A stretch of 9,861 bases of DNA from positions 1 to 9,861 of the IMG/VR virus record IMGVR_UViG_2529292920_000001; one strand, given 5' to 3'. Shown here piece by piece: positions 1 to 9,861 of the stretch (position 1 is its first letter; each line of letters starts with the position of its first letter). The stretch is from a virus. Lineage: Duplodnaviria; Heunggongvirae; Uroviricota; Caudoviricetes. Under the pieces are notes generated by a model, which did not search any database, had not been told where the DNA came from, and saw nothing but the letters and a program-made list of their open reading frames with translations. The position numbers and the translations under genes are program-made.

Positions 1-2
1 GG

Positions 3-1573
<1,571 letters not shown>

Positions 1574-1723
1574 CCATAAAGTTTCGACAACTAAAAAAAG
1601 AGAGTGCTGAACTTCATTAAAGAGTTGCATCCGGTACTGGCTAACATTATATTTATATACGACTAGTATATAGGGGGGCGCGCTGTTAATCTCATTTTAA
1701 TGAGACATATCAGTGCTTGAAGG

Positions 1724-1757
1724 GAGAGGGCGGAGTTCGGCTTTGCCCTCTCTTTTT
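1724..1757 (+). terminator. Candidate Rho-independent terminator for the ATPase/HNH operon
   Basis: Stem GAGAGGGC (1724-1731) pairs with GCCCTCTC (1745-1752) around a 13-nt loop, followed by TTTTT (1753-1757); about 150 nt downstream of the HNH gene stop. Confidence 0.5.
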
Positions 1758-1792
1758 CATGACTCCATTTAGCTTCAAATACTTGTTAAAAC

Positions 1793-2089
1793 TCATTGCA
1801 TTATTGCAACAGATTGATTAATAATTCCAATTAATGTGTTTATTTTTTCATTTATCTTAATGTGTTTTTTCTCTTGTTCAAGAGAAAGCTTCCTGAATTC
1901 ATTTTTCCTGCTCGGCACAGCAACTATCAATTCTTCATAAATCTCCTTTGCTCCTGATACTTTCGCCAACTCACTGCTGTGTTTTTCAATAAGAGAATTT
2001 ATTTGGATGTTTATATTCCTGTGTTCATGACTGGTAGCACTTGAAACAAGTTGACAGGAAGGCTTTGGGGTTGCCTCAATTAATTCCAC
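1793..2089 (-). CDS. Hypothetical protein, 98 aa, predicted helical
   Basis: ORF in the AT-rich stretch, 21 nt downstream of the 80 aa ORF on the same strand. Start is GTG (2087-2089) with no clear Shine-Dalgarno; no recognisable motif. Confidence 0.3.
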   Translation of the reverse strand: MELIEATPKPSCQLVSSATSHEHRNINIQINSLIEKHSSELAKVSGAKEIYEELIVAVPSRKNEFRKLSLEQEKKHIKINEKINTLIGIINQSVAIMQ

Positions 2090-2110
2090 GCATGTTATTG
2101 CGACATTGAA

Positions 2111-2353
2111 TTAAGATGTGGTTGAGTATAAATATTGATACACTCCTGTTTTTCTTACTTTGTTTAATAGTCCTTTTTTAACCAGGTATTGAATTTGATT
2201 ATAAGTAAAAGCTTTTGCCTTTAAATAAGTTTTCGGAAGTGAAAATCGCTCGATAAGAATTTTTGCTACATCGTTACTGGTGAAGTTATCTTTGCCAATG
2301 TAGATGATTGCAGAAAATATGTACGACTCAGAGTTGGTTACTCGACTATTCAT
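2111..2353 (-). CDS. Hypothetical small protein, 80 aa, possibly winged-helix DNA-binding
   Basis: ATG at 2351-2353 (minus strand), divergent from the HTH gene. A candidate -35 TTGTCT / -10 TATACT pair (18-nt spacer) lies on the minus strand upstream, overlapping the palindromic operators. Sequence pattern (VAKILIERFSLPKTYL...YLVKKGLL) loosely suggests a wHTH fold; not verified. Confidence 0.4.
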   Translation of the reverse strand: MNSRVTNSESYIFSAIIYIGKDNFTSNDVAKILIERFSLPKTYLKAKAFTYNQIQYLVKKGLLNKVRKTGVYQYLYSTTS

Positions 2354-2375
2354 ATGACTAGAACAAGGCTGTTGA

Positions 2376-2424
2376 CTTAGGATTGCTAAGTATACAACAA
2401 TGACAGATACTTAGACAATCTAAG
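2376..2424. promoter_or_regulatory. Two copies of a 15-bp palindromic operator-like site (CTTAG-N5-CTAAG) in a divergent promoter region
   Basis: CTTAGgattgCTAAG at 2376-2390 and CTTAGacaatCTAAG at 2410-2424, centres 34 bp apart. A larger inverted repeat CTAAGTAT (2386-2393) / ATACTTAG (2407-2414) links them. They sit between the divergent starts at 2353 (-) and 2451 (+). Confidence 0.5.
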
Positions 2425-2450
2425 CATCCGAGGCCAATGAAGATGAATCA

Positions 2451-2783
2451 GTGTCTGAAAAAAATCCGATACCAGAACGACTTAAGGAAGCGAGATGCAG
2501 GGCGGGTTTATCACAGCGCTCTCTGGGTCTCCTTGTTGGCTTTGATCCCGCATCGGCTAGCAGTCGTATGAATCATTATGAGAAAGGACGCCATGTCCCC
2601 GATATTGATACACTTCGAAGGATGGCGGCAGAGTTAAACGTGCCGTTGAACTACTTTTTTTGTGATGATCAGACAACAGCAGAACTTGCATTACTCATAT
2701 CCCGGATGACAGAGGAAGAGCGAAGTAGCCTTATCGAAGCACTCAAAACGTGTTCAGGTGTAAAACATGCTGACAAAAAATGA
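2451..2783 (+). CDS. XRE-family helix-turn-helix transcriptional regulator, 110 aa
   Basis: N-terminal Cro/C1-type HTH pattern (LKEARCRAGLSQRSLGLLVG ... MNHYEKGRHVPDIDTLRRMAAELNVPLNYFF). GTG start at 2451, so the exact start is uncertain. Stop TGA at 2781-2783 overlaps the next gene. Confidence 0.7.
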   Translation: MSEKNPIPERLKEARCRAGLSQRSLGLLVGFDPASASSRMNHYEKGRHVPDIDTLRRMAAELNVPLNYFFCDDQTTAELALLISRMTEEERSSLIEALKTCSGVKHADKK

Positions 2784-2961
2784 TGTTATACAAAAGGCTA
2801 TTGATCTTTTTGAAGGTAACGAAAGTGCAGCATTAAACTGGTGCAATGAACCAAACAGAGCATTACAGTGGAAAACGCCCTCTGAGATAATGGACTCAGA
2901 AGAGGGGGCGTTGAAAGTTGCCATGCTCATTTTTCGAATAGAGCAAGGCGTTTATTCATGA
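2767..2961 (+). CDS. Small DUF2384-like protein (Xre/MbcA/ParS antitoxin toxin-binding domain-like), 64 aa
   Basis: Own ribosome-binding site AGGTG (2756-2760) 6 nt before ATG at 2767. Pattern ALNWCNEPNRALQWKTPSEIMDSEEGALKVAMLIFRIEQG resembles the DUF2384 toxin-binding domain (recalled, not searched). It overlaps the HTH gene by 17 nt in the +1 frame. Confidence 0.5.
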   Translation: MLTKNDVIQKAIDLFEGNESAALNWCNEPNRALQWKTPSEIMDSEEGALKVAMLIFRIEQGVYS

Positions 2962-2975
2962 TTTACGACCCATCT

Positions 2976-3004
2976 AATTTCTCCAACTAACGGTTGGAGA
3001 AATT
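2976..3004. terminator. Strong hairpin between convergent genes, candidate bidirectional terminator
   Basis: Perfect 12-bp stem AATTTCTCCAAC (2976-2987) / GTTGGAGAAATT (2993-3004) with 5-nt loop TAACG, between the + gene ending at 2961 and the - gene ending at 3078. A/T-rich stem flanks but no long T-tract. Confidence 0.4.
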
Positions 3005-3077
3005 TGGGAAGGTAAGCAATATACAGAATGACGGAAAGAAATCGTCCATGCCCTTTGTCGAAAAATTACAACCAGCA

Positions 3078-3512
3078 TTATGACGACTTGTGTAACTCCC
3101 GAATTACATGTTTGGCCAACAGACTTTCCACCGGAATAACCGTATTGATTTTTACCGCTTTGACAATTTCTATCAACGACAGGGTATTCTGCGCCAGTTG
3201 GTCTCGCAGCTCACTGACTTCCGCCTGCAACTGCTGGTTTCTGGCCAGCAAGGCCTGACGGGTTTTGCGGTTGACGTATTGCTGTTTTTCTTTTGGGCGT
3301 AGATTCAATGGGCCAAGTTGCTGATCAACATAGGCAGCAATTAGGCGTTTTCGCTCAAGGCTGCTCAGCGTACTTAAACCACCGTTAACGATACCTTTTG
3401 CCTTGAGCCGAATATGCAGGGCCTTGGCGGAAATAGGGGACTTGTCAAAGCCTTCAACCAGCATCAGTTGTAATTCGTGCTCGATCAGTGTGTCCAGTTC
3501 CTTGCCGCGCAT
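3078..3512 (-). CDS. Small coiled-coil accessory protein of the recombinase operon (TnpC-like by position), 144 aa
   Basis: ATG (3510-3512) overlaps the stop of the upstream 424 aa gene in an ATGA arrangement. C-terminal half predicted coiled coil (ARNQQLQAEVSELRDQLAQ). No catalytic motif recognised. Confidence 0.5.
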   Translation of the reverse strand: MRGKELDTLIEHELQLMLVEGFDKSPISAKALHIRLKAKGIVNGGLSTLSSLERKRLIAAYVDQQLGPLNLRPKEKQQYVNRKTRQALLARNQQLQAEVSELRDQLAQNTLSLIEIVKAVKINTVIPVESLLAKHVIRELHKSS

Positions 3513-4786
3513 CAGTCGTTCTCCTGCATCAATTGTTGGTATTCAAGTGCAAAAAGCTGGGCCAGTGTACGGACTTTGCCCTCGGTGATTACTCCACCAG
3601 ACAACACACTCTCCGCAGCAACCAGTTGTTGAGTCTTGGCACGACGCTGCCATTGTGCTTGTATTGCCTCGAGTTGCTGTAACCGTCGTTCGATGTCGGC
3701 CAGTCTGGTCTGGTAGTCAGGCTGATGTTGTGTAAGTTGGGTCAACTTCGAATGTGCTTGCTGTAACGCCTGTTTTTTGGCAATCAGATTGGGTAGCTCA
3801 TCTATCCGGCCTGTCAGCGTGAAATGTTCACAAAAGGCAGCACTCTGGCATTTCAGTCGATAAGGACATCCCCAGAGGTTAACTTCCCGCATACAGGAGC
3901 CAAATTTCAGCGGATACATCACGGCATGTCTTGCCACCATGGCAGAGGCTTGCTCTGGTCCTTCTGCGTCGCGGATTTCTTCAAAGGCGGCAGCAACATC
4001 TTCAAAGAGGCCGTCAGCAAATGACGCCTCGACAAACCTAGCTACATCATCCCGATCGTCAAAAGTATGCAGGTTGGCTTTGATGGTATTGTCCAAAGTC
4101 ATGTGTTCCGTGACCGCCAGTTGGCCGGTCCGTTTGACGATTTCCAGTGGCGTAGCAACGGAGGACGAAGAGGGCGCGGCAGTTAGTGCTGTCGATATCG
4201 GCTGCAAGGGCACCAACGAGGCTGCTTTTCGCCGTTCTGCAAGCGCCAGATGCTGATAGTGCTGATTCTGCGTGATGTCCACTCTCCCCATCAGCATTGC
4301 CTGTAAGTGGTCAGCGATATCCGCAATGGCAAGAAAGGTATTGATGTTGTGCCGGGGAATGTGGGTACGCATCCGGGTGGGGGTACCATTCTCTTCCAGT
4401 AATTGATATTTGCTGAATACTGATCCATCAGGCTCAACATTGCCTAAAAATTTATTCATAAGTGTGTTAGTGAAGGGTATCGGTATAGCCAGCAAAGCCA
4501 GTGTGCGCTTTAATGCCAGCGAACCCTTCTCATGTAGAAATAACAGGTCTTCGTAGTTAACTTCGTAGCGTTTGCCATTTTCCATCCAGGCGTGCGTACA
4601 GGGTTCGTTGGCATTCGTCAGGCCAAATTCGGTCTTGATGTAATGATTAAGGTCAGTCTTGGAATAGAGGATTTTTAGGCCGAAAATGATGTAGTAGAAA
4701 TATCGAGGATCAATTTCCTGAGTTTCAAGGTAATTTTGAAATACTTTCAACAAATGCAGGTGTATAAATGGTACTATTCGACTCAT
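3512..4786 (-). CDS. Atypical tyrosine recombinase-like protein with C-terminal Cys-cluster/coiled-coil extension, 424 aa
   Basis: Residues ~142-180 read HIPRHNINTFLAIADIADHLQAMLMGRVDITQNQHYQHL, which aligns with tyrosine-recombinase box II (HxxRH ... LLGH ... Y), with Arg in place of the usual His and a candidate catalytic Tyr at ~177. A ~245 aa C-terminal extension follows, with C-x7-C-x5-C-x5-C-x-H and a Gln/Leu-rich coiled coil. Start is 9 nt after the upstream recombinase stop, without a Shine-Dalgarno. Confidence 0.6.
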   Translation of the reverse strand: MSRIVPFIHLHLLKVFQNYLETQEIDPRYFYYIIFGLKILYSKTDLNHYIKTEFGLTNANEPCTHAWMENGKRYEVNYEDLLFLHEKGSLALKRTLALLAIPIPFTNTLMNKFLGNVEPDGSVFSKYQLLEENGTPTRMRTHIPRHNINTFLAIADIADHLQAMLMGRVDITQNQHYQHLALAERRKAASLVPLQPISTALTAAPSSSSVATPLEIVKRTGQLAVTEHMTLDNTIKANLHTFDDRDDVARFVEASFADGLFEDVAAAFEEIRDAEGPEQASAMVARHAVMYPLKFGSCMREVNLWGCPYRLKCQSAAFCEHFTLTGRIDELPNLIAKKQALQQAHSKLTQLTQHQPDYQTRLADIERRLQQLEAIQAQWQRRAKTQQLVAAESVLSGGVITEGKVRTLAQLFALEYQQLMQEND

Positions 4787-4794
4787 TTAACTGT

Positions 4795-6252
4795 TTATTG
4801 ATTCGACTCATATGCACTCCATTCGTCACATACATGAGAAAAGGTTGCTCTCAGGGCCTCGTTATCCATAGCGATTCGGTGAAGATTGGCCGTATTAGCC
4901 TGCTGTGATAGAAATCTTTTGGCATAAACATCAGGCATATGGCTATTGTGACTCCAGCCGCCAAGCAGTCGTAATTCATCCTTGGCTTCATCCATTAATC
5001 CAACGATAGAAAAATCCATGACAGCCTGGAGTGAGTCGGCCTTAGTTTTTTGAAGTTTTTCACGATAAATGCGTTGAAGTGTCAAATAAGCCCAGGTATG
5101 CCGGGTTATATGAGGCGAGATGCTTTCAATGGCATCATAATATTCATCTGTTTTATATTCAGGATACCGCACACTCATAATGTCATCAATCCGGGTAAAG
5201 ATATCATAAACTGCATGGTATGACAGTGGCGGGTGTGGTTTTTGGGTGGAAGTGAACAGAAAACTATGGGAGGCTTGAGGGCGAATTTTATTGATATATA
5301 TATTTAGAAAATGAAAGTCCAGTTTATCTAATGCCAGCACCCGGTTTGCATAGACATTTTTTAATGAAGGCAATCTTTTTCGCTGATCCGAAACGTCGTC
5401 ATCTACTGTGGTCACAATCAGGCTGAACTGATCCCCTCGGAGATTTGGTTTGATCGAATGACACTCCAAAAGCAGTAATTCACTGACACGCAATCCGTAA
5501 TTTAAAAGCAATCTGCAAATCAGAAAATTACGTAGCTGGATTTCACCAGCGGGGAAGGGATTAAGTGGGTTTTTCTTTGAAATTGAACCGGGTGTAATGA
5601 TTTGGTAAAAAGCCATGACCATCTCAGCAGTCAGACTTCGAAAGCGCTTATGGGTCGTGCCATTGTTCATCTGACGAGAATGGGTAAGAGTACGGAATTC
5701 TGCTTTATGTATCGATAACCGTCCCGTTAACTGCGTGGCAAGTCGTGTGAGCTCTTTAGGTGAGCCATCTATATATCTCGGCGAGATATACGTGTTAATC
5801 AAATATCTGATAAAACGAATAACCGAATGTACATGCCTGATATTTGTACGACGTTGAGGCGTGGTCTGCGTCGTAGACCTTATGGTTAACGCTGGTACAT
5901 ATAAATGCGTATTTTCCAGATAATGAAAAAAGGCTGTAAGTTCATCAATGGCAATCAATGGATTGTGGTTCGAGGAATAGAAACTGAAGCAAAAAGTCAC
6001 GCCATGGTGCCAGAATTCATAGAAAAACTTGAGCGCTTGAAGTGAAGAGGATTGCGTGGCTGATGAACGCAAAGCAAGATGGTCTATAAGATATATTAAC
6101 GGATATAAAAGCGGCTGGCGCGTGTGAGTATCCATCAGTGCCCATAAACGCTGCCGTTGGTTGATATTGAGTTGTGTGAGTATGAACACGCGGCATTTAA
6201 CCATCGTAAATGGTGTGGGTATGAACAAAGTAACCGACAAACATAACGTCAT
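4795..6252 (-). CDS. Tyrosine recombinase / integrase, 485 aa
   Basis: Box I-like GLRVSELLLLECHSI, box II HITRHTWAYLTL, and LLGGWSHNSHMPDVYAKRF giving the LGH-like motif and a catalytic Tyr near the C-terminus. No Shine-Dalgarno before the annotated ATG, so the true start may be internal. Confidence 0.8.
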   Translation of the reverse strand: MTLCLSVTLFIPTPFTMVKCRVFILTQLNINQRQRLWALMDTHTRQPLLYPLIYLIDHLALRSSATQSSSLQALKFFYEFWHHGVTFCFSFYSSNHNPLIAIDELTAFFHYLENTHLYVPALTIRSTTQTTPQRRTNIRHVHSVIRFIRYLINTYISPRYIDGSPKELTRLATQLTGRLSIHKAEFRTLTHSRQMNNGTTHKRFRSLTAEMVMAFYQIITPGSISKKNPLNPFPAGEIQLRNFLICRLLLNYGLRVSELLLLECHSIKPNLRGDQFSLIVTTVDDDVSDQRKRLPSLKNVYANRVLALDKLDFHFLNIYINKIRPQASHSFLFTSTQKPHPPLSYHAVYDIFTRIDDIMSVRYPEYKTDEYYDAIESISPHITRHTWAYLTLQRIYREKLQKTKADSLQAVMDFSIVGLMDEAKDELRLLGGWSHNSHMPDVYAKRFLSQQANTANLHRIAMDNEALRATFSHVCDEWSAYESNQ

Positions 6253-6506
6253 GCAAGAAGAAGATAGAGGGATAGGTAAGTGTATGATTGATCGTAGTCT
6301 GTGGCTGGTTATGAACTAAATGAACGGCGGACTAAATTTAACATAATATACATTATGCGCACTGTTATCAGGACTGATGAAAACCGAAGGCCAGTCATCA
6401 CCAGAATTGCTGTAACCCATCAATTTCATCAACTGGCCACATCAATGCATGGACGACTCACGCCTTGCGTCGTTCGTCTCGATAGCTGCCCTTTAAAAGC
6501 GGCCTG

Positions 6507-6622: not shown

Positions 6623-6623
<1 letters not shown>
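6607..6623. other. Palindrome ATGCCGC-gtt-GCGGCAT abutting the pIV gene stop
   Basis: 7-bp arms with a 3-nt spacer, ending at the first base of the pIV stop codon (6623-6625). No T-tract follows on the minus strand, so it is not a canonical intrinsic terminator. Confidence 0.3.

Positions 6624-8937
<2,314 letters not shown>

Positions 8938-9252: not shown

Positions 9253-9861
<609 letters not shown>

Follow-up and report, generated by a model that had tools for sequence, protein, structure and literature searches.

Within the window (the whole 9,861-nucleotide stretch of DNA that was analysed) two genes on the same strand overlap, ORF1 encoding a predicted helix-turn-helix (HTH) regulator and ORF2 a predicted stand-alone DUF2384 domain (Table 1). 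ORF2 lies in the +1 frame relative to ORF1, and the A6 run within the overlap abuts the ORF1 stop codon. The original prediction had described this arrangement with every coordinate correct, together with a ribosome-binding site belonging to ORF2 itself and, downstream, a hairpin and a convergent recombinase operon, all of which are found where it placed them. The strong hairpin occupies part of the 116-nt gap between ORF2 and the convergent 144-aa gene. An Rfam search of the window returned no match. On the opposite strand, an antisense ORF is present at 2754-2930.

The DNA of the window is from E. coli, and its bases 1-6362 are 99.8% identical to a chromosomal island between yneL and hipA. 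The order of genes in the matching island is an ABC three-component system, retron Ec78 (reverse transcriptase, PtuA, PtuB), a gene labelled "internal stop", the HTH and antitoxin-family genes, and finally the convergent operon. Among complete E. coli genomes, 267 of 5426 carry the region, which is also found on conjugative Klebsiella plasmids. The block 1582-6362 is conserved beside different cargo, with other genomes matching the window only from base 1582 onward. Because the match starts at this position and the cargo upstream of it varies, the HTH/DUF2384 pair and its divergent neighbour belong to the backbone of the island rather than to its cargo.

The operon at the end of the backbone is complete in the 30-kb island L001, where it encodes proteins of 144 and 788 aa followed by integrases of 516 and 466 aa; one gene of this operon scores above the Phage_integrase threshold, and the 466-aa and 788-aa genes score below it. 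Relative to L001, the copy in the window is missing 2335 bp and a further 273 bp. Gene order and sizes in L001 fit an island of the GInt/Tn6571 type, a layout described previously in islands that carry defence systems in E. coli (PMC5385486, PMC10121019). A comparison of the 485-aa gene with the gamma-mobile-trio recombinase GmtY gave E = 0.17.

Table 1. Features of the locus, in window coordinates.
Feature	Position	Strand	Description
VspR-family regulator gene	1793..2353	-	nonsense codon 2111-2113 splits the window copy into 80-aa and 98-aa ORFs
Distal operator-like palindrome	2376..2390	.	CTTAGGATTGCTAAG; overlaps predicted -35 of the ORF1 promoter
Proximal operator-like palindrome	2410..2424	.	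CTTAGACAATCTAAG; overlaps predicted -35 of the divergent promoter
ORF1	2451..2783	+	GTG start, 110 aa; predicted HTH regulator of the C.Csp231I class, full length including C-terminal dimerisation helices
ORF2 Shine-Dalgarno AGGTG	2756..2760	+	inside ORF1, 6 nt 5' of the ORF2 ATG; read from sequence
ORF1/ORF2 overlap	2767..2783	+	17 nt; A6 run 2775-2780, ORF1 stop TGA 2781-2783
ORF2	2767..2961	+	ATG start, 64 aa; predicted stand-alone Xre/MbcA/ParS (DUF2384) toxin-binding domain
Hairpin, probable two-way terminator	2976..3004	.	in the gap between ORF2 and the convergent 144-aa gene; fold energy -24.1 kcal/mol, z = -5.5
144-aa gene	3078..3512	-	GinD position of GInt-type recombinase operon, from operon gene order
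424-aa gene	3512-4786		remnant of GInt-type recombinase operon
485-aa gene	4795-6252		remnant of GInt-type recombinase operon

Domain content of ORF1 and ORF2

The domains originally assigned to the two frames were recovered in profile searches, an HTH on ORF1 (Pfam HTH_3, 7.5e-9) and DUF2384 on ORF2 (PF09722 Xre_MbcA_ParS_C, 2.6e-11; 43.8 bits against a cutoff of 24.5). ORF1 was found to align with the controller protein C.Csp231I (PDB 3LFP, E = 2.4e-22), residues 9-93 pairing with residues 4-88 of 98. This alignment spans 85 residues and includes the extra C-terminal helices 6-7, which provide most of the dimer interface in C.Csp231I (PMC3115060). A match of comparable extent was obtained with the PADLOC Control_protein profile (5.5e-26, positions 2-93 of 101). 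When the alignment was read against the published contacts of C.Csp231I (PMC4321490), two of the three base-contacting residues were kept in ORF1 (Ser32 as S37 and His43 as H48, with Gln37 replaced by H42) and eight of the nine residues contacting the backbone were identical. RstR, the CTX phage repressor, was considered as an alternative identity and rejected, since ORF1 scored 38 bits against a cutoff of 80, approximately the level of an HTH alone, and the matches to C.Csp231I and Control_protein were far stronger.

ORF1 was intact in every related locus examined, and its dN/dS stayed within 0.04-0.17 at the larger divergences (dS 1.06 with dN 0.05 against L012, for instance). ORF1 is a tightly constrained gene. 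Judged by these alignments, it is a complete homolog of C.Csp231I, predicted to act as a controller-type HTH regulator, and not half of an antitoxin.

The match of ORF2 to the antitoxin family covers only the end of the profile (NCBIfam NF049845, positions 55-112 of 112), and ORF2 contains no match to the N-terminal DNA-binding HTH domain (PF20432). The AlphaFold model of ORF2 (pLDDT 94) was compared with solved structures, and the 13 best fold matches in the PDB were all antitoxin chains from complexes with RES, ParT, MbcT or NatT, among them 9R35, 8GUG, 6D0H, 6GW6, 8QNQ and 6FKG. TM-scores normalised to ORF2 were 0.65-0.81 across the 13 matches, with the best at 0.77-0.81 and an rmsd of 1.3 Å. 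The closest full-length antitoxin belongs to a RES-Xre system on Klebsiella IncHI1B plasmids; its toxin-binding domain is 60% identical to ORF2, and its gene is followed directly by one for a RES NAD+ phosphorylase. Residues characteristic of the family (W25, P29, R31-A32-L33, P38 and the C-terminal GVYS) are kept across genera. From its profile matches and modelled fold, ORF2 is predicted to be the toxin-binding domain alone of a RES-Xre type antitoxin.

Profile searches of the neighbouring ORFs in the window detected no RES gene at E <= 1, and none is annotated across L001. As a positive control, the same searches identified a RES gene immediately after the closest full-length relatives (L031, L038). 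There is also no room for such a gene ahead of the convergent operon, in agreement with the original statement that a toxin is lacking in cis.

Wider relatives of ORF2 were surveyed by scanning a genome collection with an ORF2 alignment, which yielded only three loci, and by exact-protein look-ups, which supplied the wider genomic context. Stand-alone DUF2384 proteins of 59-79 aa are common among the distant relatives and recur in unrelated mobile contexts: they were seen on a plasmid-like contig from Cronobacter, in a Tn7-like element that adjoins an ABC three-component system, and beside a HAD hydrolase gene. Neither a RES gene nor an ORF1 homolog is present in the distant contexts examined. 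A search of 50,697 phage records found no homolog of ORF2, and PHROG and PADLOC gave no match either, which weakens the reading of a phage anti-defence role.

The divergent VspR-family gene and the putative operators

Among the options initially raised for the pair was the regulation of a non-canonical partner such as the small genes upstream. This came close to the answer in naming the neighbour, but the small genes proved to be a single VspR-family gene: the minus-strand ORFs 1793-2089 and 2111-2353 are two parts of one gene broken by a nonsense codon, which RefSeq labels "internal stop" in the matching island. L002 has an intact copy of 186 aa, which shares 33% identity (E = 2e-29) with a 199-aa Pectobacterium protein (L005) that carries both Pfam VspR_N and VspR_C, and the N-terminus of the VspR-like protein is winged-helix-like. 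VspR itself is described as repressing a CBASS defence operon in the Vibrio cholerae island VSP-1 (PMC10653837).

The same partnership is seen far from the window. Distant homologs of ORF1 in E. coli, Vibrio parahaemolyticus and Shewanella were, in all cases examined, divergent from a VspR_N/VspR_C gene, with an intergenic region of approximately 100 bp containing the same putative operators. These pairs adjoin defence genes in the E. coli loci and in one Shewanella locus. No DUF2384 gene was found 3' of the ORF1 homolog in any of these distant loci. Because the distant modules have the VspR partner without a DUF2384 gene, the VspR/HTH pair is a conserved functional unit, a two-regulator switch, and ORF2 is a later addition confined to one sub-clade. 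That homologous loci consistently pair the HTH gene with a different and known partner, the VspR-family regulator, is an outcome that the original prediction had itself named as refuting it.

The 97-bp region that separates ORF1 from the divergent VspR-family gene contains two exact matches to CTTAG-N5-CTAAG separated by 19 bp, compared with 0.01 expected in the window from shuffled sequence. No further motif of this kind occurs in any related locus. The two sites are the same in the E. coli, Klebsiella, Citrobacter, V. parahaemolyticus and Shewanella loci, and remain invariant where ORF1 identity at the protein level is only 62-68% and the spacer DNA around them has diverged. C.Csp231I recognises two 15-bp sites, CTAAG-N5-CTTAG, located 18 bp apart and 5' of its own gene (PMC4321490, PMC3115060); the half-site CTTAG differs from its CTAAG at the central base alone. 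The assignment of the palindromes as operators rests on their conservation and on this analogy, in which the order of the half-sites is reversed relative to C.Csp231I, and the VspR-like protein could equally be their binder instead of ORF1.

Taken together, these observations are consistent with a model in which ORF1 would bind the two putative operators as two dimers. Since both sites overlap predicted -35 boxes, ORF1 would be expected to autoregulate its own transcript, and hence ORF2, and probably to affect the divergent VspR-like gene as well. The resulting switch may govern the island backbone.

Readings of the ORF1-ORF2 pair

We consider it probable that the locus comprises two genes of different origin, a C-like regulator and an orphan antitoxin domain, brought together as an overlapping bicistron in a GInt-type backbone. 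An orphaned antitoxin had been one of the options proposed at the outset, and it was near the mark as to ancestry; what is present, however, is the toxin-binding domain only, placed behind an unrelated regulator. ORF2 would be translated from the ORF1 transcript through its own ribosome-binding site inside ORF1, and its translation would be coupled to that of ORF1. The ORF2 product could then bind a RES-type, NAD+-consuming toxin encoded outside the locus, such as one from a plasmid that is entering the cell or already established there, and ORF2 would be dispensable, decaying where such a toxin is absent. Binding of a RES-type toxin in trans is the best-supported activity for ORF2, if it has one; at 60% identity, its distance from the plasmid antitoxin domain may be too great for cross-neutralisation.

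The main rival to toxin binding denies ORF2 any function and sees it as a remnant: part of a RES-Xre antitoxin gene would have been captured at the 3' end of the regulator gene, travel with it and now be eroding, leaving only ORF1 and the VspR-like gene active. We regard this as somewhat unlikely, and much of the evolutionary evidence bears on it. ORF2 has been inactivated independently at least three times, through conversion of W25 to a stop codon, through loss of the start codon together with an 11-nt deletion, and through a 1-nt deletion. ORF1 and the putative operators are intact in all of the loci concerned. The Shine-Dalgarno sequence of ORF2 is weakened to AGGCG in decayed variants (L014, L017). 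Most of the E. coli copies sampled carry no annotated ORF2, an antitoxin-family gene being annotated in about 10 of 40 evenly sampled matches, and in Citrobacter koseri the same backbone is present with ORF2 wholly absent, as it is from all of the more distant VspR/HTH modules. Between close relatives the dN/dS of ORF2 is approximately 1-1.9 (from small counts). The dN of ORF2 exceeds that of ORF1 by a factor of three to four.

The longer-range comparisons argue against a remnant. At dS of approximately 0.5 or more the dN/dS of ORF2 falls to 0.14-0.21, and because of this ORF2 must have been a real coding gene. Moreover, ORF2 keeps its open frame, its start codon, the +1 overlap and every residue conserved in the family across genera, and the recurrence of stand-alone DUF2384 proteins in unrelated mobile contexts likewise counts against the remnant reading. 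The short-range dN/dS and the frequency of pseudogenes are fitted equally well by a functionless remnant and by a conditionally useful gene.

The distribution of possible targets was also considered. DNA of the plasmid-type RES-Xre system was detected in 62 of 5426 E. coli genomes, mostly on plasmids; strains from conjugation assays account for several of the records listed. Because this DNA is present in only 62 genomes, ORF2 has no obvious target in most E. coli hosts. ORF2 was intact in all three of the Klebsiella places shown, a sample too small to carry weight. The pattern, drawn from a handful of loci, hints at retention of ORF2 in Klebsiella and its loss in E. coli.

A further reading makes ORF2 part of a naturally two-part regulator, in which it acts as an anti-repressor or co-repressor by binding one of the two regulators, ORF1 or the VspR-like protein. 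Its overlap and predicted co-transcription with ORF1 would suit such a role. So would the Pectobacterium locus L005, in which a second DUF2384 gene (107 aa, 42% identical) directly follows the VspR-family gene, giving each arm of the switch a domain of this kind. We nevertheless judge this reading improbable: most VspR/HTH modules lack a DUF2384 gene, ORF2 has been lost repeatedly with ORF1 and the operators unchanged, and in every solved structure containing a DUF2384 domain the partner is a toxin rather than a regulator.

The main idea of the original prediction was that a single Xre-DUF2384 antitoxin had been split by a one-base insertion in the A run. Deleting one A does join the frames, and the A6 run stands directly 5' of the stop codon, a placement that could also suggest fusion by ribosomal or transcriptional slippage. 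The junction was therefore compared across loci. The same 17-nt overlap was found in Enterobacter, Pectobacterium, Citrobacter and metagenome loci at 80-97% nucleotide identity, with the overlap geometry kept in L002, L005, L008 and L011-13. In Citrobacter L008 the A6 run is replaced by AAGAAA and both ORFs remain open. In Klebsiella L032, where identity to the window is 83% for ORF1 and 64% for ORF2, ORF2 has 63 aa, the overlap shrinks to 14 nt and the run to A4, with the frame relation unchanged. The two-ORF, +1 layout is thus shared by Escherichia, Enterobacter, Citrobacter, Pectobacterium and Klebsiella, persisting at ORF2 identities as low as 64%, with an A run that varies.

In the closest full-length antitoxin (147 aa), the last 58 residues (90-147) align with ORF2 at 60% identity, whereas ORF1 shows no similarity to the first 89 aa (E = 1.6). 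The canonical relatives P0034, P0032 and P0039 match PF20432 (Xre-like-HTH), which ORF1 does not; ORF1 matches HTH_3 and has a complete predicted fold of its own. Fused homologs were found in none of 28 close ORF2 homologs and in none of the best 120 listed ORF1 homologs, and complete homologs are of discrete lengths, 57-74 aa for ORF2 and 101-117 aa for ORF1. Joining ORF1 and ORF2 in silico raised the score against the antitoxin profile from 54.9 to 55.2 bits, a gain of only 0.3 bits. A -1 ribosomal shift, finally, would lead into the wrong frame. A recent split or a slippage fusion is very improbable in the light of these comparisons.

Least credible of all is a non-canonical toxin-antitoxin or defence module in which ORF2 neutralises the VspR-like or 144-aa gene product: the genes stand side by side and there is no further partner in cis, but the VspR-like protein, winged-helix-like at its N-terminus, falls in a family described as transcriptional repressors (PMC10653837), the 144-aa gene is part of a recombinase operon (PMC5385486), and both persist intact where ORF2 is dead. 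Readings based on a frameshift or on a toxin in cis are effectively excluded, and the locus is not a broken toxin-antitoxin module.

Relation to known systems

Orphan antitoxins, C proteins, VspR and GInts are each already known, and the locus resolves to something fairly ordinary. The literature searched yielded no paper that treats this gene pair, DUF2384 proteins that stand alone or a regulator partnering VspR, and no pairing of VspR with a C.Csp231I-like regulator through shared operators. Three elements appear to be undescribed there: an antitoxin consisting of the binding domain only, its attachment to a controller-type regulator, and a VspR/C-like pair whose operators are invariant from genus to genus.

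The distinction matters for annotation, as automatic pipelines call ORF2 an antitoxin-family gene and the locus is easily mistaken for a broken toxin-antitoxin module. The switch formed by the VspR-family and controller-type HTH regulators, beside defence cargo in several gammaproteobacterial genera, offers a handle on the control of island genes, with putative operators of known sequence and a solved homolog structure to work from. Interference between mobile elements is a role for which the orphan domain can be tested, and its target would then be the RES addiction modules that stabilise Klebsiella virulence plasmids. If ORF2 is inert, the locus is a clear case of antitoxin decay. More broadly, and as a speculation that we think rather unlikely, mobile elements may recurrently carry stand-alone toxin-binding domains, without the DNA-binding half, behind a controller-type establishment switch to disarm the NAD+-depleting RES toxins of rival plasmids or of host abortive infection, thereby releasing the host from plasmid addiction or shielding the island on entry, and the VspR/C.Csp231I-like pair, its operators unvarying from Escherichia to Vibrio and Shewanella, may, separately, be a general master switch of defence islands.

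With the C.Csp231I/C.EcoO109I class ("motif 8"), ORF1 shares the 85-residue alignment with most DNA-contact residues kept, the two upstream 15-bp palindromes built of 5-bp half-sites around a 5-bp centre (spaced by 19 bp here and 18 bp there), and a downstream gene that overlaps the controller gene. It differs in its half-site, CTTAG rather than CTAAG, and in the histidine at the position of the base-contacting Gln37. Unlike members of the class, ORF1 adjoins no restriction enzyme or methylase genes in the window or in L001, and a metagenome locus (L011) is the only one with HNH and Dcm methylase genes downstream. It is instead followed by an antitoxin domain, partnered by a divergent VspR-family gene and set in the backbone of a mobile island.

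The likeness to V. cholerae VSP-1 lies in the VspR-family identity of the divergent neighbour and in the position of the module beside defence cargo; the window copy differs in carrying a nonsense codon. In gene order and size the island resembles GInt/Tn6571 elements (ginABCD), with an operon at one end made up of one small gene, one large hypothetical gene and a pair of integrase genes, beyond which the defence cargo varies. In the Pseudomonas GInts the cargo begins at the ginD stop codon, whereas here the conserved block of ORF2, ORF1 and the VspR-like gene stands between the gene at the ginD position and the cargo, and the window copy of the operon is internally deleted.

ORF2 shares its predicted toxin-binding fold and family motifs with the RES-Xre type antitoxins (KnaA-type of IncHI1B plasmids, P. 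putida Xre, VPA0769, ParS, MbcA and NatR). Unlike them, it lacks the N-terminal PF20432 HTH, which makes up approximately two-thirds of the canonical protein, is not followed by a RES or ParT gene, and lies behind an unrelated regulator. Orphan antitoxins have been surveyed in Klebsiella and discussed as anti-addiction factors (PMC7192599). Relative to such anti-addiction modules, ORF2 is distinguished by consisting of the toxin-binding domain only and by being joined through an overlap to the gene of a controller-type regulator, and neutralisation by it is putative. It resembles them in being antitoxin-derived, in having no toxin in cis, in residing on a mobile element, and in being intact or decayed according to lineage.

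A conserved arrangement of two regulator genes and paired palindromes

The intergenic region between the VspR-family regulator gene and the HTH gene (ORF1) contains two palindromes, and in the window and five related loci (L024, L027, L029, L032 and L035) they are always found at this position. Both 15-bp sequences are identical from E. coli through Vibrio and Shewanella. Judged from sequence, the combination of VspR-family gene, palindromes and HTH gene looks like a widespread regulatory switch of defence islands that is apparently undescribed.

The original prediction had mentioned small genes upstream of ORF1. The two ORFs there are a single VspR-family gene cut by a nonsense codon. Many E. 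coli copies of this gene, like those of Enterobacter and Citrobacter, are uninterrupted and encode 186 aa. The VspR-like gene often has a co-oriented gene for a 97-98-aa HTH protein directly on its 3′ side (L016, L017, L029, L035, L039 and L040). The window lacks this companion, and the retron cargo starts at that point. The reverse transcriptase of the retron Ec78-type system lies upstream, beyond the window edge, and is present in the intact E. coli island copy (L001).

Features of the window and of related loci
Feature	Position	Strand	Details
PtuA C-terminal part and complete PtuB HNH nuclease	102-1573	+	retron Ec78-type defence system; 1.1e-103 and 3.1e-65, respectively
VspR-family regulator gene	1793-2353	-	one interrupted gene; nonsense codon 2111-2113
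Two 15-bp palindromes	2376-2424		34 bp centre to centre
Antisense ORF inside ORF2	2754-2930	-	58 aa
Recombinase operon deletion region	4666-4737		compared with L001 16968-19648
Filamentous-phage genes	6363-9861	-	directly beside island
Secretin	6623-7882	-	
Zot-family ATPase	7879-8937	-	
18-nt tandem repeat	9624-9825		11.2 copies, 96% identity
VspR-family gene with a second DUF2384 gene on its 3′ side	L005 4668-5670	-	Pectobacterium; second DUF2384 gene 107 aa, 42% identical to ORF2
HTH/DUF2384 pair with HNH nuclease and Dcm-type DNA methylase genes 3′ of it	L011 1351-3755	+	metagenome contig
Lone DUF2384 gene	L018-L020 6001-6180		59 aa; 72% identical to plasmid antitoxin domain

Recombinase deletions and adjoining phage genes

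Compared with L001, the recombinase operon of the window is missing 2335 bp and 273 bp. The 788-aa gene has thereby been deprived of its 5′ part and one integrase gene of most of its length, so this island copy is probably immobile. Filamentous-phage genes follow, and in L007 a Zot gene likewise adjoins the island. Among the phage genes, the open frame cut off by the end of the window may encode a coat protein of pIII type; within it the tandem repeat, read on the minus strand, encodes a Gly/Thr/Ser-rich stretch (GTGSGT...).

DUF2384 genes in other contexts

ORF2 contains an antisense ORF that probably arose by chance; equally long ORFs are listed for L002, L003 and L004.

In Pectobacterium (L005), where the switch adjoins a Gabija system, the VspR-family gene has its own DUF2384 gene on its 3′ side, and there is therefore an antitoxin-domain gene on both switch arms. 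No recognisable HTH was found in this 107-aa protein. The DUF2384 gene of L018-L020, related to the RES-Xre antitoxin of Klebsiella plasmids, is surrounded by many small unknown genes, with neither a toxin gene nor an HTH gene beside it; the contents of these loci further include a Rep3 replication gene (L019) and an MT-A70 methylase gene (L018 and L020). The nuclease and methylase genes of L011 may constitute a restriction-modification system and could hint at where the controller-type regulator came from.
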